Source: an uncultured Acidobacteriota bacterium (lineage in GTDB: Bacteria > Acidobacteriota > Blastocatellia > RBC074). Taken from it: DNA of 64,000 nt. Location: assembly GCA_963699175.1 (NCBI GenBank), contig OY969418.1:7730689-7794688 (forward strand). Reading direction: 5' to 3'. Positions 20,247 to 58,216 of this stretch are shown in pieces. Under the pieces are notes generated by a model. That model was given only the letters and a program-made list of their open reading frames with translations. It made no database searches and was not told the origin of the DNA. The stretch's first letter is position 1; each line of letters opens with the position of its first letter. The translations under genes and the position numbers were made by a program.

Positions 20247-21530
20247 CTACTTTCGCGTGCTTGCGCGCAAATCTTTTTCCGCACCATGTTGCGTGTGGCA
20301 AGCGATACAACGCACATTACCTTGTTTAAGCGAGTTCGTGGCAGCCCACTGCGCCAGCTCAGCGGCCAGTTCCGGATGTAAACGATGACATTGCGCGCAC
20401 GATTCGCGTACATTGTGCCACAGCTCCTTGCCTTCCATACCACCCAGATGGCAATCGCTGCATTGGGTGCGGCCTTGCTGCCGGCCTTGCGTGTGCAGCA
20501 TGTGGAATTGCTCGCGCAGGTTGTAATCCGCCGTGTGCTTGGGCAAGGCGCGGCGTTGCCATTCGGCTTGCGCGAGACCGTCCCACGACCAGAGGCCGTT
20601 TTTGACCGGATAACGGACTGGCACCTGATGCGGCGAGCCAGCCGGCTTGTTTTCTGTTGTGCCGCTCTCTGCCAGATGGCAATTTGTGCAGACAGCATTG
20701 GCGACTAATCCAGGTTGAAAGGCGCTGCCGCGATGTTCAGCGTGACAAGTCAGACAAGTCAAGCCGAGCTTCGCATGCGTGTTGCCAATCTCAGATCGAA
20801 AAGCAGGTGTGGTGTGACAGCTTGCGCAATTTTTTTGCATTGAGCCAATCAAGACGTGACAGCTTACACACGAGCCGCCGCTGGCGCCCACCGCAACAGC
20901 GGTTGAGTTGGTGAGAGCGTTGCGAGTGTGCGCCGCAGAAAGTGCCGCCGGAGCAAACGCGCGCGGAAAGGCGAAGGCCGCAAAAATTGCAATCAGCGCA
21001 GTGGCCAGCAGGACGCCTACGACTAAACCCCACGTCCAGCGGCGGCGCAGGTCAGCAGTAGGTTGCCAGGCGAATTGTGCGTCGGCGGGCAGGGTTGTCT
21101 GTACCGCTTCAGCCGTTTGCAAGCGACGCGCCCAGTAATTGCTCAAGGCGTTTTCATCTGTGGGTGTGACTTCTTTCGGCGCTACGGTGGCCGCTGTGTC
21201 ACTGGCTGGCTCAAGCAGAAATTCAACGGTGATTTGCAACAGTTCTCCAATCACCGAGCAATGCAGCCGATATGCGCCGAGCAGCAACGCGTCGCCACTG
21301 GTGAGCGGCGCGTGGTTGACCGGTTCGCTGTTGAGCAAGAGACTCGATTCTGCGAGCGCGGAAATCCAATACGCACCATCCTGCAGTGTGATGCCCGCGT
21401 GAAAGGGCTGCACCGTAGGATGATTGAGCTGCAAATCGCACACTGCTGCGCGCCCGATCAGCAAACCTTCGCTATGGAGCGAACTGGGATCAGCCTGGTA
21501 ATCAGTGCGAAGAATGCGGAAAGTAGCCAT
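20247..21530 (-). CDS. FHA domain - single TM - periplasmic heptahaem c-type cytochrome
   Basis: The N-terminal FHA-like segment is LLIGRAAVCDLQLNHPTVQPFHAGITLQDGAYWI. The TM is WGLVVGVLLATALIAIFAAFAF. The seven CxxCH motifs are CVSCH, CASCH, CLTCH, CTNCH, CSDCH, CAQCH and CIACH. Confidence 0.8.
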   Translation of the reverse strand: MATFRILRTDYQADPSSLHSEGLLIGRAAVCDLQLNHPTVQPFHAGITLQDGAYWISALAESSLLLNSEPVNHAPLTSGDALLLGAYRLHCSVIGELLQITVEFLLEPASDTAATVAPKEVTPTDENALSNYWARRLQTAEAVQTTLPADAQFAWQPTADLRRRWTWGLVVGVLLATALIAIFAAFAFPRAFAPAALSAAHTRNALTNSTAVAVGASGGSCVSCHVLIGSMQKNCASCHTTPAFRSEIGNTHAKLGLTCLTCHAEHRGSAFQPGLVANAVCTNCHLAESGTTENKPAGSPHQVPVRYPVKNGLWSWDGLAQAEWQRRALPKHTADYNLREQFHMLHTQGRQQGRTQCSDCHLGGMEGKELWHNVRESCAQCHRLHPELAAELAQWAATNSLKQGNVRCIACHTQHGAEKDLRASTRK

Positions 21531-25984: not shown

Positions 25985-26389
25985 TCAAGCGCGCGGTCGG
26001 ACGTTTTCACGGATGTATTTGATAATCTCTTCGGTAGAAGTGCCGGGCAAAAAGACCGCGTCAACGCCGCGTTCTTTCAGCTTAGGAATGTCGTCTTCAG
26101 GAATGATCCCACCGCCGAAAAGCAGCACATCATCCATTTCCTTTTCGCGCATCAACTCGCGGACGCGCGGAAAGATCGTCATATGCGCGCCCGACAAGAT
26201 CGAAAGCCCGATGATGTCTACATCTTCCTGCAAGGCCGCATTGACGATCTGTTCGGGCGTCTGGCGCAAGCCGGTGTAGACGACCTCCATCCCTGCATCA
26301 CGCAGCGCACGCGCGATGACTTTCACCCCACGGTCGTGACCGTCGAGGCCGGGTTTGGCTAATAGGACTCGGATTTTTGTTTCAGACAT
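25985..26389 (-). CDS. Methylmalonyl-CoA mutase, cobalamin-binding small subunit/domain
   Basis: [36 protein letters not shown] contains the DxHxxG B12-binding motif. 134 aa. Confidence 0.9.
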
Positions 26390-26672
26390 AGCGGTCAGTA
26401 GTTGGGAAACAATGTAGGTTAGCCAGAGCGCAATGGAAAGCGATTATTGTTGCTCTTCCTTCCTATCAGTTCGAGAATGTCGAGGAGATTGTAGCGCAGC
26501 GTACCGAGCATCGCCAGATGTTGCGCCATTTCGATGATGTGCCCGTTCCTCTGCAATATCCCGTAATCTGGTGGCAGCGGTCTCCGACTCAGCGCGCCCG
26601 CCTTTCATCAGCGGCACCAAGGACAGTCAGAAATTTGAAGGCTTAGTCGTAAGGCTTCGTGTGCATAACCGG

Positions 26673-27089
26673 TTACGGCTGTTTCTTGTAATCAATTTGC
26701 CAGACGCGCAACAGTTGCGCGAAGCCGTCATCGTGCGAGGTGGTGAAATCAACAATCTGAAGTTGTGGCAACACCCAGGAGAGATCCCTTTCCCGGCAGT
26801 GTGCGTATCGCAGCGGGACAATCTTGCCGTCAAACCGATCTTGCAATATGGCGTCGTTGAGTTCGTACTTGACCCACCTCGATTTGACTGAATTGGGGGA
26901 GAGAATGACGATAAACCAATCACAACGTTCAAGCGCTGCGCCGATTTCACCCAGCCATTGTTGGGCGGCAGTGATATTGGTTGGACTGTACCAAACAACC
27001 AACCCGTGTTGTCGGAGTGTGTCAGCCACATGCATCGCAAAGGCTTGGTCATCGCTGGAATGGGAGAGGAAAATTTCTTTCGGCAACAT
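26673..27089 (-). CDS. Stand-alone TIR-domain protein
   Basis: 138 aa. The TIR opening is EIFLSHSSDDQAFAMHVADTLRQHGLVVWYS. SPNSVKSRWVKYELNDA contains the SxW..E context of the catalytic Glu of TIR NADases. Confidence 0.8.
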   Translation of the reverse strand: MLPKEIFLSHSSDDQAFAMHVADTLRQHGLVVWYSPTNITAAQQWLGEIGAALERCDWFIVILSPNSVKSRWVKYELNDAILQDRFDGKIVPLRYAHCRERDLSWVLPQLQIVDFTTSHDDGFAQLLRVWQIDYKKQP

Positions 27090-27134
27090 AAGGGTAGCTA
27101 ACCGGCTGGTGTTGACGGCCAGACAAGCGCCTGC

Positions 27135-27938
27135 TTAGGCTGCGGCTTTTAGCGCCGCGACAATTTGATTGAGGTCTTCGCCCTGGCCGTTATTGGGCAG
27201 GGTGATCATGTTTAAGCGCCGCAAAATCCAGGGAATCTTGTTTTGGGGAATTTGTTTAGGATCGCCTACCAGCACTGGAATCAAGCGGTGTTCATAGGCG
27301 CGGTTGCCCAGCGCATACTCGATGTCCTTCTTGACGTCGTCCAGCGAGTCGGGCGAGAGCAGGACGACCATCGCATTGGATTCTTCGAGCGCCTTGCCTC
27401 TGATTTTGGCCCAATTGTCGCCGGGGAAAATTTCGCGGTCGGCATACCACACGTCTAAGTCGGAGTCTTTCAGCCTTGCCTGAATTTTGAGCGCGAGCGT
27501 TTTATCGCTCGGCGAGTAACTGAGGAAAACTTTTAGCTCATCACGTGCGGGCGGGCCAATAACAGCCTCAACTGCTCTCAACAAACTCTCTAGTCCCTCG
27601 CGCTTACTGCATAGAGAAACATTACTTCCATTTGCTGGTGAAAGGAGTTCACGCACTAAATCTACAGTCACCTCCAGATACGCCGTCAAGATGATCTTAG
27701 GCAAAGTGTCATCAAGTTGTTTGGCGAATACCAAACCGGAGAGATCCTTTTCGTCTGCATCATCTTGGAGACGGACATCAAAGATCGCCAAGTCTAGATA
27801 CTTTTGTCCTGCTGTAGTTATTGCTTCTTCAAGGCTTGAAGCTACTAGGACTTGATAACCCTTACGTTCAAGAAATTCTTGAACAGTTTCACGATAATCA
27901 GGATCATTGTCCACCAACAGGATTTTTTTTGTTTCCAT
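27135..27938 (-). CDS. Response-regulator receiver (REC) domain fused to a C-terminal TIR domain
   Basis: The REC domain has KILLVDNDPD (acidic pocket), LAIFDVRL (Asp54 acceptor), IILTAY (Thr85) and Lys112. The TIR domain has KVFLSYSPSDKTLALKIQARLKDSDLDVWYADREI...VVLLSPDSLDDVKKDIEYAL. An AGGAG SD lies upstream of the ATG. Confidence 0.8.
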   Translation of the reverse strand: METKKILLVDNDPDYRETVQEFLERKGYQVLVASSLEEAITTAGQKYLDLAIFDVRLQDDADEKDLSGLVFAKQLDDTLPKIILTAYLEVTVDLVRELLSPANGSNVSLCSKREGLESLLRAVEAVIGPPARDELKVFLSYSPSDKTLALKIQARLKDSDLDVWYADREIFPGDNWAKIRGKALEESNAMVVLLSPDSLDDVKKDIEYALGNRAYEHRLIPVLVGDPKQIPQNKIPWILRRLNMITLPNNGQGEDLNQIVAALKAAA

Positions 27939-28035
27939 CGCGTTTTCTCCTGCGAGCTGTTGGGCTATCTACAAAGGCTCACACGCAAGCTAAACCTAGA
28001 AAAAACATTTTGGCAAACACCGCGCCAGCACGAGC

Positions 28036-29736
28036 CTAAAAGTCCGGCTCTTGATATTCCCCAAACACGGGCCGTAGCGCGTCGCACATTTCACCCAACG
28101 TGCAATCAGCGCGCGCACACTCAATCAGCAGCGGCATCGTGTTGGCCTGCTGGTCTTCCGCGCCTTTACGTAAAGCGTCGAGCGCGCGTTCAGCTTTGGC
28201 TTTATCGCGCCTCTCACGCAGCCGCGCCAGCCGCTCTGCTTGCAGCCCCGCCACCGTTTCGTCAATCAAGAGGATATTCGGCTCGCCGAGTTCGTTGCCT
28301 TCCATTTGATAGTCATTGACGCCGACGATGATCTTCTCACCGCGTTCGACCGCACGCTGATATTGGTAGGCCGATTCATGAATCTCCTTTTGCGGGAAGC
28401 CCAACTCAATGGCCTCGACCATTCCACCCATCGCGTCAATCTTGCGGAAGTACTCCCAGGTTTCCTCTTCGATGTCTTTGGTCAGCCGCTCGATGAAGTA
28501 GGAACCGGCCAGCGGATCAACTGTGTTGTTGGCGCCGGTCTCGTGCGCGATGATCTGTTGCGTGCGCAATGCAATCAGCGCCGCGCGTTCGGTCGGCAGC
28601 GCCAACGCTTCGTCGTAGCCGTCGCAATGCAGCGACTGCGTGCCGCCAATGACACCAGCCAGCGCCTGAATCGCCACGCGGATAATGTTGTTGATCGGCT
28701 GTTGCACGGTGAGCGAGACGCCCGCTGTCTGCGTGTGGAAGCGCATTTGCCACGAGCGCGGATTTTGCGCGTTGAAGCGTTCGGTCATCACGCGATACCA
28801 AATGCGCCGCGCCGCACGGTACTTGGCAATCTCTTCAAAAAAGTCGTTGTGTGCGTTGAAGAAGAACGACAGGCGCGGCGCGAACTCATCCACGTCCAGT
28901 CCCGCGCTGATGCCGTATTCGACGTATTCAATGCCGTCGCGCAGCGTGAAAGCCAATTCCTGCGCCGCCGTCGCGCCCGCTTCGCGAATGTGGTAGCCGG
29001 AGATTGAGATGGAATTCCACTTCGGCATCTCCTGCGCGCAGAACTTGAAGGTGTCCGTGATCAAACGCATCGCCGGGCGCGGCGGATAAATCCATTCCTT
29101 CTGCGCGATGTATTCTTTCAGGATGTCGTTTTGCAACGTGCCGCCAATGTTGTTCCACGCTGCGCCTTGCCGCTCCGCGGTCGCCAGAAAGAAAGCGAAG
29201 ATCATCGAAGCGGGCGCGTTGATCGTCATCGAAGTCGTAACTTGATCGAGCGGGATGCCATCAAAGAGCACTTCCATATCTTCACGCGACGCAATGGCCA
29301 CGCCGCACTTGCCGACCTCGCCCTCGGAAAACGGATGGTCGGAGTCGTAACCCATCAGCGTCGGTAGATCGAAGGCAGTAGACAAGCCTGTCTGGCCGTG
29401 TTCGAGCAGATATTTGAAACGCCGATTGGTATCGAAGGCCGAGCCAAAGCCAGCGAATTGCCGCATCGTCCAGGGCTTTGCACGATAGCCAGTCGGATGA
29501 ATGCCGCGCGTGTAAGGCGGCTGCCCCGGGAAGTTGATGTCGCGCGCGAAGTCAATGTCTGTTACGTCCTGCGGCGTGTAGAGCCGTTTAATCGGGCGCA
29601 GCGAGACGGTCGAAAACTCGCGCTGGCTTTCGGGCAGCTTCTTGAGCGAAGCCGCGAGCGTGGTTTCTTCCCATTCTTGTTGCAGTGCGTCGGGTTGATT
29701 CTCTAAGAGAGTGACATTAGTAGACGAATTGCTCAT
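28036..29736 (-). CDS. Methylmalonyl-CoA mutase large (catalytic, TIM-barrel) subunit
   Basis: It has the typical [33 protein letters not shown] and [23 protein letters not shown] blocks. The ATG at 29736 has an AAGGAG SD. The listed TTG at 29766 lies inside a REP-B arm. Confidence 0.9.
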
Positions 29737-29755
29737 TGTTTGGACTCCTTGGAAA

Positions 29756-29839
29756 ATGTCCGACAAGCTGCCAGCTTGTCGCTGACTTTGCTATGCGTCC
29801 AACCGAAAGACCGCGACAGGCTGGCAGCTTGTCGGACAT
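29756..29839. repeat. REP-B double-hairpin palindrome
   Basis: ATGTCCGACAAGCTGCCAGCTTGTCGC (29756-29782) pairs with GCGACAGGCTGGCAGCTTGTCGGACAT (29813-29839). Each arm is itself a small palindrome (CGACAAGC..GCTTGTCG). Confidence 0.8.
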
Positions 29840-29985
29840 TGCGAGAAACAGCCTGATTTTATTGGCGAAATCGTTCGTTCAGCCTTAAGTGGCGATGATA
29901 GTGGAGCATTACAAGGAGTGTCAAACAAGAGAACTTGGCGGCTACGTGCTTGTGCTGTGCTGAGTAGGCTGTCTGTTATTGCGGC

Positions 29986-31224
29986 TCAGGCGAAACTTTC
30001 CTCCGCCCTACCACGTTGCGAACGATAAATGAAATTAGCCCGGCCAAAGCGCACTTCACAGCCGTCATCCAAGCGCACTTCCTTGATGCGTTTGCCGTTG
30101 ACGAAAGTGCCATTGCTGCTGTCTAGATCGAAGAGCAAGTATTGATCCTCTTCGACGATCAAGCGGGCGTGGCGTTTGGAGACCGAAGGGTGTTCGATCA
30201 CGAAAGAGTTGTTGAGTGTACGCCCGACGAAGATTTCATCGCGGTTGAGGATGAAGGCGATGCGCTCGTCGCCATCCGGCGTGAACGAAACGAAGTGCGG
30301 GCGGTTGTCCAGATTTTCGCGCGCCGGAAGGCGGATGTTTGCGCCGCAGCGCATGCAGAACTTCGCGCCAGGGCGTTGTGGTTCGCTACAGACAGGACAT
30401 AGCTCCAGTTCTTCGGGATCAGGAATAATGACCCCACAACGCGGGCAAGGCATGCCGGCTTTGCCCTTCGCGCCGCATTGCTGGCAGTAACGGCGCGTCG
30501 GCATCAGCATCGTACCTTCGCGGTGTGGCGAAGTCTCGGCGTGATACTTAGTGCGTGAGCGTACCCACAGGAAGAGCGCAACCATCGCAATGACCAGCAG
30601 CACGAAAAAGCCATTGTGCCACTTGGTCGCGCCTTCCAGCATCGTGTTGAAGAGTGCATGCAACATTGCCGCAATCAGCCAGCCTTTGACGACAATGGGC
30701 GCGCGTTCACTGGTCAGGTTGGGTTTGGTCTTGGCTTCGCAGAGCGCCAGACCCCAGACAGCGGAGAAAAGCGCATGGCCAGGGTTCGAGAGTGGCCCGC
30801 GCAGCAATACAAACAGCGGATTGTTTTGCGAGATGTAGAAGATATTTTCGACGGCGGCAAAGCCTAGCGCGGCAGCGGCGCTGTAGATGACACCATCGAG
30901 CGGCTCGTCGAATTCCGGCTGGCGGTAAGCGTAAATCCAGACCATCAGCATCTTGATGCCCTCTTCGACCGGCCCGACGACGCAAAAGAAAAAGAGAATG
31001 TCCGAGATTTGCGTCTTGCCCGCAAACGCATAGAAGAGATTGCGCCCAATGACATTGAGGAAGAGCGCCGGAATCGTCGAGAACGCGCCCAGCGCAAAGG
31101 TGATGGCGATCAGCCGTAACGGCGGGCGTTTGTAACGGCTATGCGTGTAGAAGTAGACCAGCCAGACTACGCAAGGCAGCAGCGAGATGAAGGGGATGAA
31201 GATGAGTTTTTGCAGGTCAGTCAT
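29986..31224 (-). CDS. PrsW-family intramembrane protease + double zinc ribbon + C-terminal FHA domain
   Basis: PrsW motifs are VEEGIKML, GFAAVENIFY, HALFSAVWG and HALFNTMLEG. There are four CxxC pairs (CQQCG, CPRCG, CPVCS, CMRCG). The FHA segment is IFVGRTLNNSFVIEHPSVSKRHARL...LDSSNGTFVNG. Confidence 0.8.
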   Translation of the reverse strand: MTDLQKLIFIPFISLLPCVVWLVYFYTHSRYKRPPLRLIAITFALGAFSTIPALFLNVIGRNLFYAFAGKTQISDILFFFCVVGPVEEGIKMLMVWIYAYRQPEFDEPLDGVIYSAAAALGFAAVENIFYISQNNPLFVLLRGPLSNPGHALFSAVWGLALCEAKTKPNLTSERAPIVVKGWLIAAMLHALFNTMLEGATKWHNGFFVLLVIAMVALFLWVRSRTKYHAETSPHREGTMLMPTRRYCQQCGAKGKAGMPCPRCGVIIPDPEELELCPVCSEPQRPGAKFCMRCGANIRLPARENLDNRPHFVSFTPDGDERIAFILNRDEIFVGRTLNNSFVIEHPSVSKRHARLIVEEDQYLLFDLDSSNGTFVNGKRIKEVRLDDGCEVRFGRANFIYRSQRGRAEESFA

Positions 31225-31226
31225 TC

Positions 31227-31335
31227 GATTTTAGATTTTGGATTTTGGATTTTGGATGGCGGATTTGTTGAAATGCTGCTTGGTCTTGCTGCGCTAAATT
31301 CTCAATCCAAAATCCAAAATCTAAAATCCAAAATC
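31227..31335. repeat. Heptamer-hairpin (unit GATTTTG / CAAAATC)
   Basis: The left arm is GATTTTA GATTTTG GATTTTG GATTTTG GATGGCG GATTT. The right arm is AAATTCTCAATCCAAAATCCAAAATCTAAAATCCAAAATC. It exactly fills the gap between two same-strand genes. Confidence 0.85.
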
Positions 31336-33124
31336 AATTCTCTTCGCTCTTGCGTTTCAAAATCACCATCGTCAGGTCATCCACGCTCTTGGCTTTACCG
31401 ACGAAGCGTTGCAGGGCGTCGTCAATGCGGTCGCGCAGGCCGGCAGCGGTGCGCCCGCGATTGCGCTGGGCGATTTCGATCAGACGAGCTTCGCCGAACT
31501 CTTCTTCTTGCTCGTTGAGGCTTTCGGTCACGCCATCGGAATAGATTACCAGCACATCGCCGGGTTCAAGCTGCACCAAACCTTCATGATAATCGCCGAA
31601 GGGTGTGATACCGACCGGAAAACCGCCGATGTCCAGGCCCGTAACTTCACCCGAGGCGCGCACGAGGAGCGGCGAGTTGTGGCCACCGTTGATGTAGGTC
31701 AATTGATGCGTGCGCGGATCGAGTTCGCTGTAAAAGAGCGTCACATAGCGGTTGGCGGGCGTGTTGTCGTAGATGTAATGGTTGATCTCGCTGACGATCT
31801 CACTTGGCGAGAGCCGTGTGGTGGCTTGCGCGCGCACGGCGGCATGGATGGAAGACATCAGCAGTGCCGCGCCCGTTCCTTTACCCGATACGTCACCAAG
31901 TGCGATGACGTGACGACCGTCGCGCTTCTCGATGAAATCGAAGTAGTCGCCGCCGACTTCGTAACAAGGGAAGCTCACGCCCATCAAATCGTAACCTTCA
32001 ATGGACGGCGACGCCGAAGGGTGCAAGCGCAATTGAATTTCGCTGGCCAGGGCCAATTCGTTGGCAAGGCGCTTCTGCTCCTGCTGCGCGTCGAGCAGGC
32101 GGACGTTTTCGATGCGGATGGCGGCGACGCTCGCGATCAGCGTCAGCAGTTCAAGGTCGCGTTTGGTGAAACGGTTGGTGTGAACGGGGCTGTCAACGTA
32201 GATCATGCCCAGCACGCGCCCTTCGACCATCAAGGGCACGGCCATGATTGAGCGGATGCCGGTGAGCATGATGGATTGATTCGATTGGAAGCGCGGATCT
32301 TGTTGCGCGTCGGAGGTGAGCAGTGATTTGCCGTGCTGCAAGACCTGCTCGGTAATCGAGCGGCTGAGCGAAACTTCATTACTGTTCGGCCCGGTGCTGC
32401 GCAACTTTTGGGCTTTGCAAACGAGTTCGGGCGGCGCGTTCTTCTTGCCCTCCGGCGGTTCGAGCAGCATCACGTAGCCGCGATCTGCCTGGTTCACCTG
32501 AAAGACGCACTCCAGCACTTGCCCCAAGGTTTCGTCGAGCGACATCGGCGAGAGCAGCGTCACGCTCACGCGGCTGATGACGGCCAGCGTGTCGTCTTGC
32601 GAAGCGGTGACCGGCCCACTCGGTTGCACGCCAACTGGCCCGGATTTGTGCAGCGATTGCGCTAGCAGTGTTTGATGGCTGGAATCAATCGTAGTTAGCA
32701 GACTCTCCTTTGAATTGCGCGAGCCGGAGGCAATCGTCACTTCGGGAGCCGATGGATGCGGCGTGTCGGCCAGCAGCACCTGTGTGCGGCCTTTGGTGCG
32801 GCTCGTGTCGGCGCGGTCGTTGAATTCGATCTCAGTCTCGCCGATGCGGATGACATCGCCATCACGCAAGAGGGCTGGGGAAGTCAAGCGCGCTTCATTG
32901 AGCAGCGTGCCATTGGCGCTGCCCAGGTCGCTCAACCAAAAGCTGGTGTCGCCTTTCTTGCGCACTTCAGCGTGTAGGCGGGAGGCGAATGGGTCTTCCA
33001 AACAAAGATCGTTGCGCGCAGAACGGCCAATAGTGACGCGGGGACGATTCAATTCGGCAACCGAATCGCTACCGGGTGCGCTGGCGGAACCAGCGGGGGC
33101 AACACGAACAATCAAACGTGGCAT
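31334..33124 (-). CDS. FHA - GAF - PP2C/SpoIIE-type Ser/Thr phosphatase
   Basis: The FHA segment is VTIGRSARNDLCLEDPFASRLHAEV...LGSANGTLLN. There is a central GAF-like region. The phosphatase motifs are GGDYFDF, ALGDVSGKGTGAALLMS and YSDGVTE. Confidence 0.85.
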   Translation of the reverse strand: MPRLIVRVAPAGSASAPGSDSVAELNRPRVTIGRSARNDLCLEDPFASRLHAEVRKKGDTSFWLSDLGSANGTLLNEARLTSPALLRDGDVIRIGETEIEFNDRADTSRTKGRTQVLLADTPHPSAPEVTIASGSRNSKESLLTTIDSSHQTLLAQSLHKSGPVGVQPSGPVTASQDDTLAVISRVSVTLLSPMSLDETLGQVLECVFQVNQADRGYVMLLEPPEGKKNAPPELVCKAQKLRSTGPNSNEVSLSRSITEQVLQHGKSLLTSDAQQDPRFQSNQSIMLTGIRSIMAVPLMVEGRVLGMIYVDSPVHTNRFTKRDLELLTLIASVAAIRIENVRLLDAQQEQKRLANELALASEIQLRLHPSASPSIEGYDLMGVSFPCYEVGGDYFDFIEKRDGRHVIALGDVSGKGTGAALLMSSIHAAVRAQATTRLSPSEIVSEINHYIYDNTPANRYVTLFYSELDPRTHQLTYINGGHNSPLLVRASGEVTGLDIGGFPVGITPFGDYHEGLVQLEPGDVLVIYSDGVTESLNEQEEEFGEARLIEIAQRNRGRTAAGLRDRIDDALQRFVGKAKSVDDLTMVILKRKSEEN

Positions 33125-36079: not shown

Positions 36080-37609
36080 TCACGAGACGACGAATTTCAA
36101 CATCGTCTCACCGAGCTTAAGCTCGTCACCGCTCACCAGCGCGTGTAATTGTCCCTGTGGCAGTTTCTTGGTGCCATTGATAAAAGTGCCATTGGCGCTG
36201 CCCAGGTCTTCGATGAAGAACTGTGTATCGCGCGCGATGATCTTGGCGTGGCGGCGCGAGACGCGCGCCGCCGGGTCGTACTTCGACAAATCCACTTCGG
36301 GACGAATCCCGCGATTCGGATCCATACGGCCAATCAAGCTTTCGCCTTCGAGATTGAGCATGAACTGCGCGTTCATCTCGTTCGTGCCCAACACGACCAG
36401 CTTGGCCGTGGTGCGCTGGCGATGGCCACAATAAGCGCAAAAGACATCGCCCGTTGCCATCTCGCGCCCGCAGTTGCCACAGGTCTGTATGGGCGCAGGC
36501 GGCGCAGCGTAATCAATTTGCTGGCGCACCGGCCCGGCGTGACCTTGCAAGTGACGCAGGTGCTCGATCAAGTCCGCGCCAAAAGCTTTGGCCGACGCAA
36601 AGCGGTTCTCTGGTTTGTATTCGACCGAGCGGCAAATCAACTCTTCTAATTCCGGCGAGATTTCGGGATTGATCTGGCGCGGTTTCGGATTCTTGGCGAA
36701 ATCGAAGATCAGCAACGGATTGTCTTGCGGGTCTTGTCCCGTGAGCAGATGGAACATCGTCGCGCCGAGCGAATAGATGTCCGAGCGCGCTTCAACATTG
36801 CCCGCAAACAGCTCTGGCGGCGCATAGCCCATCGTGCCGATGGCCGTCACGCCTTTGACCGTCGGCGCGACGAAGCGCGCGATGCCGAAATCCACCAGCA
36901 TGATGCGATTCGTGCGCGCGTCCACCATCAGGTTGGCGGGTTTCAGGTCGCGATAAATGATCGGCGGATTCTGTGAGTGTATGTAATCGAGCACGTCGCA
37001 GATTTCAATGCCCCACTTGGTGACGGTCGCTTCGTCCAACTTACCACCGGCAGCACGTTGGCGAGCGGCCAGGTCGCCGCCGTCAATGAACTTCATCACG
37101 AGGTAGTAGCGGCCACGCGCCGTATCGAAGAAGTATTGCAGGATCGTCGGGATCGAAGGGTGATCGAGTTGCGCGAGCAGTTCGGCCTCGCGTTTGAAGT
37201 CGTCTATCGCTTTCACGCGCGCCGAGTCGTCGGCGAACATCTCGATCATCTCTTTGACTGCGACTTTGCGGTTGGCCAGGTTCTGATCTTCCGCTAGATA
37301 GACCGATCCCATACCGCCGCCGCCAATGCGCCGGACGATCTTGTAACGGTCGGCCAACAACGTCCCTGGCGGAAGTTGAATGCCTGAGGTGTTATTGCCG
37401 GATGCGCTCATACTCAAGTGTGACGTTCGCCCTGATTCTGTGTCTACGCCGGTTCCCATCCCCGCTTGCGTGCCTGCCCAGTTCGCAGCCCCGCGAGCGG
37501 GCGCTTGCGGTGGTGGCGGTGGCGCCGTAATGTCCTGAAGCCAGCCGCATTCGCCGCAATAAGGATCACCGGCTGTGGTGGGCGCGCCACATTCGGGACA
37601 GAATGGCAT
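36080..37609 (-). CDS. Zinc ribbon - Ser/Thr protein kinase - zinc ribbon - FHA domain protein
   Basis: The first zinc ribbon is MPFCPECGAPTTAGDPYCGECG. Kinase motifs are IGGGGMGSVY, VAVKEM, YRDLKPANLMV, DFGIAR and GTMGYAPPE. The second zinc ribbon is CGNCGREMATGDVFCAYCG. The FHA segment is LIGRMDPNRGIRPEVDL...VSRRHAKI...IEDLGSANGTFING. Confidence 0.9.
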   Translation of the reverse strand: MPFCPECGAPTTAGDPYCGECGWLQDITAPPPPPQAPARGAANWAGTQAGMGTGVDTESGRTSHLSMSASGNNTSGIQLPPGTLLADRYKIVRRIGGGGMGSVYLAEDQNLANRKVAVKEMIEMFADDSARVKAIDDFKREAELLAQLDHPSIPTILQYFFDTARGRYYLVMKFIDGGDLAARQRAAGGKLDEATVTKWGIEICDVLDYIHSQNPPIIYRDLKPANLMVDARTNRIMLVDFGIARFVAPTVKGVTAIGTMGYAPPELFAGNVEARSDIYSLGATMFHLLTGQDPQDNPLLIFDFAKNPKPRQINPEISPELEELICRSVEYKPENRFASAKAFGADLIEHLRHLQGHAGPVRQQIDYAAPPAPIQTCGNCGREMATGDVFCAYCGHRQRTTAKLVVLGTNEMNAQFMLNLEGESLIGRMDPNRGIRPEVDLSKYDPAARVSRRHAKIIARDTQFFIEDLGSANGTFINGTKKLPQGQLHALVSGDELKLGETMLKFVVS

Positions 37610-37671
37610 AACCAAATCTGAGTGCCGTGTGCTTGAGCCGCAAGCTTTGCTGACTCCGCACTCGGCGCTTT

Positions 37672-38412
37672 TCAATTCACTACAAATTTCAAAAAAGTTT
37701 TGCCGACGATGATCTCATCGCCGTTCTTCAAAGGTTGCTTGTTGCCGGGCAGCAAGCGCGGGCCGCGATTGACGAAAGTACCGTTAGTGCTGCCCAGGTC
37801 TTCGATCAAAAACTGATTGTTCAAAACCTGAATGCGTGCATGCCGCCGCGAGACTTTGGCTTCGGGGTCGTCCTGATCCAAATCTACATCGGGAAAGATA
37901 CCTCCGTCGGCATCCCAGCGCCCAATCATTGATTCGTCGCTGGTCAACGGAAACTCTTTGCCGACCTTGCCCCCGCGTTGAATGATAAGTTTAGCGCGCA
38001 TCGCAGTGGCCTCTGCATCGCCATCGGCCACTGCCACTCGGCTTGATGATGATGCATGTAAAGAACCCGTTTGCCCTTTGACGACATTGGTCAAATTGGG
38101 CTGATTGCTGACGGCCGTGGGGTTACCCCCCAGCGCCGGATTGACCGACGTATTAACCGGTGTAGACCGCGCAGGCTGGGCCGGTTGGGCAGCGGGTGGC
38201 GGCGCGGTATAGGGCGTCGCCGGTTTCGGCGCGACGTTCTCACGCGCGAACTGCGCTGGCGGCGGCGGCGCGAATTGCGGCGGCGGTGGCACCGCCGGTT
38301 TCTGCGCGGGCACGGAACGCACCGAAGCTGCCGCACTCAGCCGGTTTCCGCATTCGTCGCAAAATTCCGAGCCGTCCAGATTATCAGTGCCGCATTGATG
38401 ACATCTGACCAT
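37672..38412 (-). CDS. Zinc ribbon - Pro/Ala-rich linker - FHA domain protein
   Basis: The zinc ribbon is MVRCHQCGTDNLDGSEFCDECG. The FHA segment is MIGRWDADGGIFPDVDL...VSRRHARI...IEDLGSTNGTFVN, closely paralogous to the kinase FHA. Confidence 0.85.
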   Translation of the reverse strand: MVRCHQCGTDNLDGSEFCDECGNRLSAAASVRSVPAQKPAVPPPPQFAPPPPAQFARENVAPKPATPYTAPPPAAQPAQPARSTPVNTSVNPALGGNPTAVSNQPNLTNVVKGQTGSLHASSSSRVAVADGDAEATAMRAKLIIQRGGKVGKEFPLTSDESMIGRWDADGGIFPDVDLDQDDPEAKVSRRHARIQVLNNQFLIEDLGSTNGTFVNRGPRLLPGNKQPLKNGDEIIVGKTFLKFVVN

Positions 38413-43899: not shown

Positions 43900-46719
43900 A
43901 TGGCCAAAACAGACCAAACCCCAGACAACAAGCTGACACGCACACCCATCCTGCGGATCGAAACGGGCCGGCATACCGCCGTCATCAGAAGGATCAGCGT
44001 GGATGCGGCGAATCGCTATCTGGTGACGGCTTCGGATGACAAGACGGCGCGGGTCTGGGAACTGGCGACGGGCCAGGGTGAGCCAATGAAGCTGTTGCGC
44101 GTGCTGCGTCCGCCGCTGGGCGCGGGCAACGAAGGCAAGCTTTTCGCAGTCGCGCTATCGCCCGATGGCCGCACCGTTGCGGTCGGGGGATGGACGAGCA
44201 AGGATGGATTGCAAACCAATCTCTACCTCTTCGACCGGGAGAGCGGGCGGCTGGTGCGGCGCATTGCGGGGCTACCCAATGTCATCAATCACCTCGTCTA
44301 CTCGCCGGACGGGGAGTGGCTGGCTGCCACGCTGGGCGAAGGCGGCGTGCGCGTCTACGCCACCGGCAGCTACGCCGAGACGGGCGCGGATCGGGATTAC
44401 GGCAATCAGAGCTACGGCGCGGACTTCGACGCGACGGGGCGGCTGGTGACGACGTGCTTTGACGGCAACCTGCGTCTTTACGATTTGAGCGATGGCGCCT
44501 TGCGGCTGGCGGCGAAGCGCAAGGCGGAAGGCGGTGAGCGACCATTCTCAGTCAGCTTCTCGCCCGATGGGGAACGGGTGGCAGTCGGGTTTGCTGATTC
44601 GACCCGCATAGCCGTGCTGTCGGGGCGCGACCTGACGCAACTCTACGCACCCGATACTAGCGGCGTGGACAATTGGACATTAGATAGCGTCGCGTGGACG
44701 GCGGACAGGCAGGCGCTCGCGGCGGGGGGCAGCTATGGCAAAGGCGGGCAGCGCCAAATCCGCCTCTGGTCGGAGGGCGAGCGCGGCAGTTACCGTGAGG
44801 TGGCGGCGGCAGATAACACGATTATGCACATCCTGCCGCTGCGAGATGGCGGGTTGGTCTACGGCGCGGGTGATCCGGCCTGGGGAGTGATTGATGCGCG
44901 CGGCCAGCGCTCGCACTTCTTCGGCCCGGAGATTGCCGATTACCGGGGAATGCTGGAAAGTTTTTTGCTCTCCGGCGATGGCGCGGGCGTGCAGTTTGGT
45001 TATGAGTCCGGCGGCAAAGCCCCTGCGCGATTTGCAGTGGCTGAGCGGCGGTTGGAGATGGGCGTCCCCGGTTCTGGCGCGCTCGCTGCTCCGCTCATCA
45101 CCGGCCTTGCGGTCAGTGATTGGAAGGACAACTACGCCCCTAAACTCAACGGCCAGCCGCTGAAGCTGGAGCAGTACGAAAGATCGCGCAGCCTCGCCAT
45201 CGCGCCCGACCAGGCGCGGTTTCTGCTGGGAGCAGATTACCGGTTGCGCCTCTTCGACCGCAGCGGCAAAGAGTTGTGGCAGACGGCGATTCCGGGCGTG
45301 GCGTGGAGCGTCAATATCTCCGGCAACGGCAAGCTGGCGGTGGCGGCCTTTGGCGATGGGACGATCCGCTGGTATCGGCTGACGGATGGCCAGGAATTGC
45401 TTGCCTTCTTCCCGCACAACGACCGCGAACGCTGGGTGCTGTGGACGCCGTCGGGCTATTACGATGCGTCGCCCGGCGCGGAAGATTTGATCGGCTGGCA
45501 CGTCAACAACGGCCCGGAGCGCGAGAGCGATTTCTTTCCCGCCAGCCAGTTCCGCGACCTTTATTACCGGCCCGACGTGGTCGCGCGCGCGATGCAGACG
45601 CTCGATGAAGCCGAGGCCGTGCGACTGGCCGACGCCAAAGCGGGGCGCAAGCGGCAAGACCCGGACGTGCTCAAACGGCTGCCGCCCGTGGTGCAATTGA
45701 TCGCGCCGCACGATGGGATGGAGGTGCGGGGGACGGAGTTGACGGTCTACTTCACGGTGCGCGCGCCATCGGGCGAGCCGTTGACGGGAGTGAAGGCGCT
45801 GGTGGACGGGCGTCCGGTCGAGATCGAAAAGGATTTGCAGTGGTCAGCCGACACGCCGCAACACTTGCAAGTGACGCTGCCGGAGCAGGATTGCGAGCTA
45901 CAATTGCTGGCCGAGAACCGCTTTGCCGCCAGCGTCCCCGAAGTGCGGCGGTTGAAATGGCGCGGGCGCACTACGTCAGTCAGCCGACCGAACCTGTACC
46001 TGCTGGCCGCCGGGGTCAGCCGCTACGCCAATTCGGATTACAACCTGAGCTTTGCGGCGAAGGATGCGCGCGATTTTGCAGCGGCGATGGAGCGGCAACA
46101 AGGCTTGCTCTACGGCAAAGTTGAGGCGCGCGCGTTGGAAGACGGAGATGCAACACGTGACGGGATTGTGGACGGGCTGGATTGGATTTGGAAAGCGGCA
46201 AAGAGCACGGATGTGGCGATGGTCTTCCTGGCCGGCCACGGCGTCAACGATGCGCGCGGGCGTTACTTTTTTTGCCCGCATAACATCTCGTTCGAGCGGC
46301 TGTTGAGCACCGGTGTCAGCTTCAGCGACATCAAGAGCGCCGTCGAAGCGATTGCGGGCAAAGCGGTCTTCTTCATAGACACTTGCCATTCCGGCAACGC
46401 GCTCGGCGGCCAGGCGCGGGCGGTGGACATCAACGGCTTCATCAACGAATTGACCAGCGCGGAGAATGGCGCGGTTGTCTTCGCCGCCTCGACCGGGCGG
46501 CAAGTCTCGCTCGAATTTGACGAGTGGGGAAACGGCGCGTTTACGAAAGCACTGGTCGAAGGTATTAATGGCGGCGCTGTGGTTCAGGGAAAAGACAAGA
46601 TCACGATTACCTCACTCGACTTGTATATCTCTGAGCGGGTCAAGGCACTGACTGACAACGCGATTACCGGGAAAAAGTGCTTATTGAAACAGCAAGTTAA
46701 AGAGCGAATAGGCGAGTAA
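43900..46719 (+). CDS. WD40-repeat beta-propeller(s) + caspase-like (peptidase C14) protein; the 3' end is altered by the IS982 insertion
   Basis: WD repeats include TASDDKTARVWEL. The caspase His/Cys dyad contexts are VFLAGHGV and FFIDTCHSGNA. From codon 920 (nt 46657) the frame reads into the IS, giving the IS-derived tail NAITGKKCLLKQQVKERIGE. Confidence 0.85.
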   Translation: MAKTDQTPDNKLTRTPILRIETGRHTAVIRRISVDAANRYLVTASDDKTARVWELATGQGEPMKLLRVLRPPLGAGNEGKLFAVALSPDGRTVAVGGWTSKDGLQTNLYLFDRESGRLVRRIAGLPNVINHLVYSPDGEWLAATLGEGGVRVYATGSYAETGADRDYGNQSYGADFDATGRLVTTCFDGNLRLYDLSDGALRLAAKRKAEGGERPFSVSFSPDGERVAVGFADSTRIAVLSGRDLTQLYAPDTSGVDNWTLDSVAWTADRQALAAGGSYGKGGQRQIRLWSEGERGSYREVAAADNTIMHILPLRDGGLVYGAGDPAWGVIDARGQRSHFFGPEIADYRGMLESFLLSGDGAGVQFGYESGGKAPARFAVAERRLEMGVPGSGALAAPLITGLAVSDWKDNYAPKLNGQPLKLEQYERSRSLAIAPDQARFLLGADYRLRLFDRSGKELWQTAIPGVAWSVNISGNGKLAVAAFGDGTIRWYRLTDGQELLAFFPHNDRERWVLWTPSGYYDASPGAEDLIGWHVNNGPERESDFFPASQFRDLYYRPDVVARAMQTLDEAEAVRLADAKAGRKRQDPDVLKRLPPVVQLIAPHDGMEVRGTELTVYFTVRAPSGEPLTGVKALVDGRPVEIEKDLQWSADTPQHLQVTLPEQDCELQLLAENRFAASVPEVRRLKWRGRTTSVSRPNLYLLAAGVSRYANSDYNLSFAAKDARDFAAAMERQQGLLYGKVEARALEDGDATRDGIVDGLDWIWKAAKSTDVAMVFLAGHGVNDARGRYFFCPHNISFERLLSTGVSFSDIKSAVEAIAGKAVFFIDTCHSGNALGGQARAVDINGFINELTSAENGAVVFAASTGRQVSLEFDEWGNGAFTKALVEGINGGAVVQGKDKITITSLDLYISERVKALTDNAITGKKCLLKQQVKERIGE

Positions 46720-57622: not shown

Positions 57623-57716
57623 GTTCGACAAGCCGGCAGAACTTGTCGGAGGCTCGGCTAGCGAATCATTGGGTTTGACGATTAAACCTAGGACAAGCTC
57701 TGTCAGCTTGTCGAAC
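57623..57716. repeat. REP-B double-hairpin palindrome copy
   Basis: GTTCGACAAGCCGGCAGAACTTGTCGGA ... TAGGACAAGCTCTGTCAGCTTGTCGAAC. Same CGACAAGC/GCTTGTCG core as 29756-29839. Confidence 0.75.
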
Positions 57717-57727
57717 AGGAGAGGTCA

Positions 57728-58216
57728 ATGCGCTACGTAATGAAAAAGAAGTTGTTCGCCATTGGCGATGACTTCTACATCAAGGACGAAGACGGCAACA
57801 AGGTATTCTACGTTGACGGCAAAGCCTTCAGCCTCGGCGACAAGTTTTCCTTCCAAGACCTTGCGGGCAACGAACTGGCCTACATCAAACAAAAACTGCT
57901 GGCGCTGACGCCGAGCTACGAAATTCATCGCGGCGGCGAATTGTACGCGGTCGTCAAGAAAGACTTCTTCAACTTCTTCATCTGCGGCTACACGGTGGAT
58001 GTGCCAGGGCCGGATGATCTGCGCGCCGAGGGCGATCTGTTCGATCACGAGTACGAATTCAGACGTGGCGGGCAGGTCGTCGCCACCGTAACCAAACGCT
58101 GGTTTTCGTGGACTGACACTTACGGCGTCGAAGTTGCGCCGGGCGAAGACGATGTGCTGATGCTGGCCAGCACGGTCGTCATTGAAATGGCTTGCCACAA
58201 GGAGAAAGAAGATTAA
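57728..58216 (+). CDS. LURP-one-related (DUF567, tubby C-terminal-like) protein
   Basis: KLFAIGDDFYIKDEDGNKVFYVDGKAFSLGDKFSFQDLAGNELAYIKQKLL and YEIHRGGELYAVVKK are typical of the family. Confidence 0.7.
   Translation: MRYVMKKKLFAIGDDFYIKDEDGNKVFYVDGKAFSLGDKFSFQDLAGNELAYIKQKLLALTPSYEIHRGGELYAVVKKDFFNFFICGYTVDVPGPDDLRAEGDLFDHEYEFRRGGQVVATVTKRWFSWTDTYGVEVAPGEDDVLMLASTVVIEMACHKEKED

Follow-up and report, generated by a model that had tools for sequence, protein, structure and literature searches.

The window analysed here, a stretch of 64,000 nucleotides (nt) from an uncultured Acidobacteriota bacterium (GenBank assembly GCA_963699175.1, contig OY969418.1, positions 7,730,689 to 7,794,688), carries two adjacent TIR-domain genes placed in line between the large and small subunit genes of an acyl-CoA mutase. 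The upstream gene encodes a TIR domain preceded by a receiver (REC) domain; we refer to this protein as REC-TIR and to its TIR domain as TIR-A. The downstream gene encodes a short stand-alone TIR, here called TIR-B. We give an even chance to the reading that the pair is a local, receiver-fused copy of a self-contained, effector-less two-gene TIR cassette, with TIR-B as the catalytic and TIR-A as the regulatory partner. As far as the literature was searched, what is new here is an obligate two-TIR cassette without an effector, locally fused to a receiver; TIR enzymes themselves are known. The locus consists of the following elements:

28036-29766, minus strand: large subunit of the mutase (PF01642, E 4.5e-224)
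27135-27938, minus strand: REC-TIR gene, 267 amino acids (Response_reg, E 3e-10; TIR_2, E 2e-21)
27555-27938, minus strand: REC domain of REC-TIR, residues 1-128 (Response_reg, AlphaFold2 model, Foldseek)
27138-27536, minus strand: TIR-A domain of REC-TIR, residues 135-267 (TIR_2, E 2e-21)
27090-27134, minus strand: intergenic gap between TIR-A and TIR-B, 45 nt
26673-27089, minus strand: TIR-B, stand-alone TIR of 138 amino acids, predicted catalytic subunit (TIR_2, E 1e-26)
26390-26672, no strand assigned: spacer, 283 nt, no function detected
25985-26389, minus strand: B12-binding small subunit of the mutase (PF02310, E 3.5e-29; TIGR00640, E 7.8e-51)

This order on a single strand, from the large subunit through REC-TIR, TIR-B and the spacer to the B12-binding subunit, is the one described in a first-pass annotation made from the letters alone, and it is confirmed with all genes on the minus strand. 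The two TIR assignments and the REC domain of that annotation also stand after comparison with Pfam profiles, AlphaFold2 models and Foldseek matches. TIR_2 (PF13676) scores are 77 bits for REC-TIR and 93.9 bits for TIR-B against a curated cut-off of 28. Both models are confident (mean predicted local distance difference test 92.5 for REC-TIR and 93.3 for TIR-B) and match solved REC and TIR folds; no solved structure among the Foldseek matches combines REC and TIR.

The two-TIR arrangement is widespread. A scan with a TIR-B profile of one genome per GTDB species returned some 430 matching stretches as a minimum estimate; the analysis of loci covers the best 80. Carriers span at least ten phyla and include Acidobacteriota, Nostoc and other cyanobacteria, Planctomycetota, Latescibacterota, Gammaproteobacteria, Armatimonadota, Chloroflexota, Poribacteria, Binatia and Verrucomicrobiota. 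A distinct TIR-A lies directly upstream of TIR-B on the same strand at 79 of the 80 loci, and the remaining locus ends at a contig edge; loci outside the 80 show the same arrangement. The median gap between the two genes is about 22 nt, and most gaps fall between -17 and +53 nt. The distance matrices of the two families are correlated (Mantel r 0.73, a value reached by none of 999 permutations). TIR-A and TIR-B thus travel as a unit. The pairing is obligate, and the view of a two-gene TIR module is borne out by both the adjacency and the co-evolution of the genes. The annotation had held that such a module would be contradicted if relatives carried these genes at unrelated loci and never as a pair: relatives do carry them at unrelated loci, and they carry them paired at the 79 loci counted above. 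Most of the cassette family has no REC domain at all. Both genes are under purifying selection, with ratios of nonsynonymous to synonymous substitution rates (dN/dS) for the pair of 0.34 and 0.21 in Nostoc at a dS of about 0.17, and of about 0.1 elsewhere. One of very few split pairs is found on a metagenomic contig (L114, 689-1340; compare L113), where a PIN-domain toxin gene and the gene of an 80-amino-acid partner lie between TIR-A and TIR-B.

The surroundings of the cassette are variable. No cluster of neighbouring genes (blastp, within 4 kb) is common to several phyla, and synteny is seen at the level of lineages only. At 33 diverse loci the 131 nearest-neighbour proteins include at most two members of any one PADLOC or Pfam family, and none of these proteins is a SIR2, SLOG or Macro protein. 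The cassette has no conserved third gene. A defence-island context was rejected along with such a gene, as there is no consistent tie to defence genes, and a small membrane protein encoded downstream of three related loci (L201-L203) was rejected as a partner, being a matter of local synteny only. The annotated contexts are those of housekeeping genes: after atpC, beside rpoD/dnaG, near moaC or addB, and within a MacB transporter cluster. The family has no member in 72,556 plasmids (best match 37% identity) and none in 50,697 phage records. The window itself follows this pattern. Its examined open reading frames include no SIR2, SLOG or Macro gene, and no histidine kinase is encoded among the approximately 26 larger frames of the 64 kb; the absence of a cognate kinase is weak evidence, since orphan regulators exist. 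The initial description of the pair as lacking an effector and a cognate kinase nearby thus holds for the frames examined, as does its placement outside a defence island, among housekeeping genes.

Several features point to TIR-B as the NAD+-cleaving subunit. The motif S70-x-W72-x3-E76 (SRWVKYEL, 26862-26882) had been noticed as the SxW..E context of the catalytic glutamate in NAD-cleaving TIR domains, and it does align with the W..E of AbTir and BtTir. Profile searches with TIR-B recover BtTir (8e-13) and AbTir (6e-12), and its structural model matches PdTIR, the SPARTA TIR, BtpA, BtTir and AbTir in Foldseek. Within the family, Trp72 and Glu76 are invariant across all 95 sequences, and Ser70 is present in 93 of these. 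The family is tight, consisting of proteins of 135-150 amino acids in about 108 clusters at 45-76% identity, with a mean pairwise identity of 60%. Two cysteines, C56 (26922-26924; 93/95) and C98 (26796-26798; 90/95), are near-invariant, and histidines including H10 and H28 are almost so. This set of Cys and His residues is unusual among TIR domains and might form a metal or redox site.

TIR-A is the more divergent partner, with a mean pairwise identity of 45%, and the two families differ in how strictly they keep the catalytic motif. In TIR-A the catalytic position is occupied by Glu in 69 of 99 sequences, by Asp in 18 and by Asn in 10, and the Trp of the motif is present in only 20 of the 99. 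In the REC-fused copies this position is Asp in ten of ten, and Trp is found in none. For the window protein, a profile-profile alignment by hhalign (probability 99.5%) pairs Asp205 (27324-27326) with E76 of TIR-B, and the Trp position falls in a deletion of two residues. The first reading of this region, a DIEYAL motif lacking Trp and retaining the catalytic Glu, was therefore right about the Trp and wrong about the Glu: Asp205 aligns at the catalytic position, and the Glu of DIEYAL is E207, two residues further on in a non-conserved column. TIR-A has its own near-invariant loop, P172-G-D-N-W176 (PGDNW), plus a P-W pair, and in Foldseek the C-terminal half of REC-TIR matches a TIR-STING protein. 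A search for other N-terminal fusions on TIR-A yielded no clear case: ten long open reading frames turned out to be over-extended frames with a TIR domain only, and a ferritin-like match at one locus (L020) is weak and below threshold.

The REC-fused proteins form a monophyletic group with 100% bootstrap, and the fusion has a single origin, within a narrow acidobacterial lineage of the Blastocatellia type. A library of 1.84 billion cluster representatives contains only two from this group; its few other REC-TIR architectures are unrelated, at 32-38% identity. The AlphaFold2 model of the REC domain has a (beta-alpha)5 fold, matched by PhoB, CheY4 and VicR at a target-normalised template modelling score of about 0.8 in Foldseek. 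The domain contains D10, N11, D54 (27777-27779), T85 and K112, and a long, acidic, conserved beta3-alpha3 loop. The first-pass annotation had credited it with a complete set of phospho-acceptor residues. D10, D54, T85 and K112 are indeed present; the canonical acidic pair, given as D10/D12, is in fact D10-N11, so that the second Asp, which binds the metal, is absent, and D12 sits one position out of register. In ten REC orthologues T85 and K112 are invariant. At the second acidic, metal-binding site, which corresponds to CheY D13, one of them has Asp and the other nine have N, R, K or S. The acceptor D54 is replaced by Glu in three orthologues and by Asn in a fourth, and these four include all three other mutase-linked loci. 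Two-component phosphorylation control, as initially proposed for the pair, is doubtful, because the acceptor Asp is replaced in four of ten orthologues and the REC domain is a lineage-specific addition. The REC domains most closely related to this one occur in fusion with CyanoTRADDas_TM, a predicted effector domain with two transmembrane segments.

The segment had also appeared lower in G+C than the mutase genes. This is correct, with the drop concentrated in the REC-coding half (G+C 0.436; G+C at third codon positions, GC3, 0.36); GC3 is 0.60-0.72 in the TIR half of the same gene and in the neighbouring genes. There is no comparable drop in orthologues, where GC3 of the REC half is 0.63 (L001) and 0.59 (L115). 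It is possible that a recent replacement of the REC-coding segment (27555-27938) lies behind its low GC3.

Other combinations of REC and TIR were seen beyond the cassette. A distant REC-TIR (P0077) with a fully canonical receiver is encoded beside a 2309-amino-acid PAS/GAF sensor kinase (L005, 2639-20646), in a cluster that also encodes a single REC protein, a REC-TCAD9-Trans_reg_C protein, asparaginase-domain proteins and two further TIR proteins, one of them with AAA_35. Since this canonical-receiver REC-TIR adjoins a large sensor kinase, phospho-controlled TIRs probably exist; the REC-TIR subfamily of the window is no clear example of them. P0063, a protein of 365 amino acids, has the order REC, TIR and LuxR/GerE helix-turn-helix, corresponding to a TIR inserted in a NarL-type response regulator. 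Five proteins of the representative library (P0202, P0217, P0231, P0252 and P0333) are giants of 1,400-2,300 amino acids with five to seven query-matching stretches each, the best-scoring one being TIR-like.

Comparison of mutase loci confirms that the pair was inserted between the subunit genes. Many related Acidobacteriota have these two genes side by side: in about 30 related, more distant genomes the gap measures only about 10-130 nt. The insertion is real and old. The closest relative without TIR genes (L028, 86% mutase identity) carries two M16 peptidase genes between the subunits. Three loci (L001, L003 and L115) have the order mutase large subunit, REC-TIR-A, TIR-B, M16, M16, B12-binding subunit, and the window has its 283-nt spacer where these closest relatives carry the two peptidase genes. 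In three further members of the same clade (L121, L122 and L125), REC-less pairs are located just downstream of the B12-binding subunit gene. The tree is compatible with one ancestral insertion for the three mutase-linked arrangements, with bootstrap values of just 43% and 6%. Elsewhere the association disappears: REC-fused pairs of the same subfamily are found with no mutase nearby, after a DUF1552 gene (L201-L203) or beside a methyltransferase gene (L199/L200), and more than 85 pairs of other lineages likewise have no mutase nearby. The mutase context is therefore not a property of the system, and since REC-fused pairs turn up at mutase-free loci as well, the position of the pair in this operon is probably incidental. 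The only strong promoter-like site detected lies ahead of the mutase gene, and the hairpin behind that gene is a weak terminator candidate; co-transcription of the pair with the mutase operon is possible. The spacer (26390-26672) was assessed as a possible M16 remnant, riboswitch or small gene. It has no similarity to the intergenic DNA of relatives, no Rfam match and a fold no more stable than that of shuffled sequence (z +1.58), and its small open reading frames and an 83-codon antisense frame have no Pfam match.

We propose the following model for the cassette. It comprises TIR-A followed about 20 nt later by TIR-B, a unit widespread in environmental bacteria, in which TIR-A gained an N-terminal receiver domain in the one narrow acidobacterial lineage (Blastocatellia type). 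TIR-B would cleave NAD+. TIR-A, as the faster-evolving sensor, regulator or adaptor, may join TIR-B in a heteromeric complex and gate its activity, and in this lineage the REC domain may add an input switch, probably an atypical one that is not strictly dependent on phosphorylation. Activation would consume NAD+ or yield an ADP-ribose-derived product, and might in this way halt a cell that is under phage attack or stress. The loss of NAD+ could itself be the output, or else the product could act on a sensor encoded elsewhere. The position in the mutase operon would reflect in-line insertion and inheritance, perhaps with read-through expression, and not a metabolic link.

Several observations weigh against this reading. 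Ten Nostoc species have the cassette at the same locus with the same flanking genes. This shared locus, the housekeeping contexts and the lack of carriage by plasmids and phages are unusual for a defence system, and fit a physiological role equally well. TIR-A may also be catalytic, as Glu is kept in 69% of its family and Asp in all ten REC-fused copies. The receiver of the window does keep D54, T85 and K112, so that it may be phosphorylated in this particular genome. Finally, the pair lies beside mutase genes in seven of the eight genomes of the clade, in two arrangements, an association that chance alone does not fit comfortably. A further-reaching interpretation would make TIR-A and TIR-B an obligate heteromeric enzyme, the representative of a new effector-less TIR class present in at least ten phyla, passed on stably at housekeeping loci and placed under an atypical receiver in one lineage, with a physiological role and not one in classical phage defence; an NAD-derived signal or the control of NAD in stress, dormancy or multicellular behaviour may serve as examples. 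We put this forward tentatively and regard it as rather unlikely.

The alternatives differ in the role they assign to the receiver, to TIR-A and to the neighbouring genes. REC-TIR could be a genuine response regulator whose TIR domain becomes active once D54 has received a phosphoryl group from an orphan histidine kinase or from acetyl phosphate. We judge this unlikely. It would account for the D10, D54, T85 and K112 set in a canonical REC fold, and it has parallels in the fully canonical P0077, located beside a giant PAS/GAF kinase and other REC proteins, and in the several other REC-TIR architectures of the representative library. It has to contend with N11 at the metal-binding position, which is N, R, K or S in nine of the ten orthologues; with the Glu (3/10) or Asn (1/10) at the acceptor position, including all three other mutase-linked loci; with the lack of a kinase among the larger frames of the window; and with a cassette family that is mostly REC-less. 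A functional link with the acyl-CoA mutase or B12 metabolism, in which the pair regulates the mutase pathway or responds to it, is very improbable. The adjacency to mutase or B12-subunit genes in seven of eight clade genomes and in two arrangements, the shared strand and the strong promoter-like site solely upstream of the mutase gene speak for it, but the more than 85 mutase-free pairs of other lineages, the REC-fused members of this subfamily that sit at two other, unrelated types of locus, and L028, which has the same mutase operon without the pair, do not agree with it.

An addiction module similar to toxin-antitoxin systems would have TIR-B as an NAD-degrading toxin that TIR-A neutralises by heterodimerising. 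The build of the pair would suit such a module: both genes are small, point the same way with about 20 nt between them, occur as single copies at scattered housekeeping sites and pass on together, as type II toxin-antitoxin genes do. The faster evolution of the upstream gene and the PIN toxin-antitoxin module inserted between both genes in L114 would suit it too. We nevertheless consider it distinctly unlikely: TIR-A has no DNA-binding domain for autoregulation, the plasmid and phage collections (72,556 and 50,697 records) contain no family member, and the long-term synteny in Nostoc and Pyrinomonadaceae suggests retention for a host function. Still less probable is a Thoeris-like pair whose TIRs make a signal of the cyclic ADP-ribose type for an effector encoded elsewhere in the genome. 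Both proteins have weak ThsB-type matches in PADLOC, Pfam and NCBIfam, and Thoeris operons with two ThsB genes exist. However, in Pfam the ThsB_TIR scores (19.5) fall short of the gathering threshold of 21.2, and the latest systematic survey of bacterial TIRs describes 29 Thoeris-like types, each with an adjacent effector (10.64898/2025.12.03.692087), which is found neither at the 33 diverse loci nor in the window.

The mutase gene and other parts of the window show some further features. The name methylmalonyl-CoA mutase, used in the first-pass annotation, is correct as to family (PF01642) and not supported by the substrate-specificity residues: the large subunit has Phe (RQFAGF) and Gln (AQKEW) at the positions of Tyr89 and Arg207 (Propionibacterium shermanii numbering; alignment to 1REQ and 4R3U). 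With both residues replaced, 'methylmalonyl' is only a family label. The best solved relative is the 2-hydroxyisobutyryl-CoA mutase HcmA (4R3U), which has Ile and Gln there. The combination of Phe and Gln is what we take to be the signature of isobutyryl-CoA mutases, and would fit a split gene structure of the IcmA/IcmB kind. The true start of the large subunit is probably the ATG at 29736, which is preceded by an AAGGAG motif; it is the likelier start because the listed TTG falls inside a hairpin. This hairpin corresponds to a near-perfect inverted repeat in the mutase leader (29755-29840; 35-nt arms, 91% complementary; RNA fold z = -6.7), which lies downstream of the promoter-like site (29924-29895, 11 of 12 consensus positions) and ahead of the ATG with its Shine-Dalgarno sequence. 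A second, diverged copy of the palindrome occurs at 57623-57716, upstream of an outer-membrane protein gene at 58182, and the palindrome looks like an intergenic element of the repetitive extragenic palindromic type. On the plus strand, 43900-46719 encodes a 939-amino-acid protein with WD40 repeats and a caspase-like Peptidase_C14 domain. The neighbourhood is unusually rich in FHA domains, all encoded on the minus strand (20247-21530, 29986-31224, 31334-33124 and 36080-37675), in proteins that combine FHA with a multihaem cytochrome, a PrsW protease with FHA, FHA with GAF and a SpoIIE phosphatase, and a Ser/Thr kinase with FHA.

Current surveys look for TIR genes beside an effector in defence islands. 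A cassette of two minimal TIRs with no effector and housekeeping neighbourhoods would escape them, yet it is present in hundreds of species; the survey cited above discards TIRs outside multigene operons (10.64898/2025.12.03.692087). If TIR-B needs TIR-A, the cassette would be the simplest natural heteromer of a TIR sensor and a TIR catalyst and a compact model for the gating of TIR assembly, with the REC fusion as a natural handle on regulated assembly. Among the carriers is Nostoc sp. UHCC 0252 (L134), whose genome is not metagenome-assembled, so genetic work may be feasible.

The pair had been described as matching no described TIR system, and this is upheld as far as the literature was searched: on REC-TIR proteins or paired bacterial TIRs we found nothing besides ThsB1 and ThsB2 of Thoeris. 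In the Thoeris system of Staphylococcus aureus, ThsB1 binds a phage capsid protein, which serves as the trigger, and recruits and activates ThsB2, and the catalytic Glu is needed in ThsB2 only (Roberts et al. 2025, PMC12578639). ThsA-ThsB1-ThsB2 and the cassette both contain two adjacent, distinct TIR genes; the division of labour between them has been shown for Thoeris and is proposed here for the cassette. Thoeris requires an adjacent effector (ThsA or an equivalent) and occurs in defence contexts, whereas no conserved effector was found for the cassette and its contexts are those of housekeeping genes. Both cassette proteins are, apart from the REC fusion, minimal TIR domains of about 136 amino acids. 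The receiver has its own parallels. Kinase-independent REC domains were proposed earlier for bacterial conflict systems (Kaur et al. 2021, PMC8195603), and these domains (see also cRec, PMC7824862) resemble the one described here in lacking a cognate kinase and in being joined to a predicted effector. They differ in being computational predictions within multi-gene ternary systems (PMC8195603, PMC7824862).

With stand-alone TIR NADases such as AbTir, BtTir, PdTIR and BtpA/TcpB, TIR-B shares the fold and the S-x-W-x3-E context, and they are its top matches in both the profile and the structure comparison. The regulation of a catalytic TIR by a non-catalytic one in a heterodimer is known from the plant proteins RRS1 and RPS4, to which the proposed arrangement of the cassette bears a likeness; these are large eukaryotic nucleotide-binding leucine-rich repeat receptors with no homology to the cassette beyond the TIR fold. 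AbTir, BtTir, PdTIR and BtpA form homo-oligomers and usually have an N-terminal coiled coil or other additional regions, whereas TIR-B consists of the domain only, and its gene always comes paired with that of a distinct TIR.

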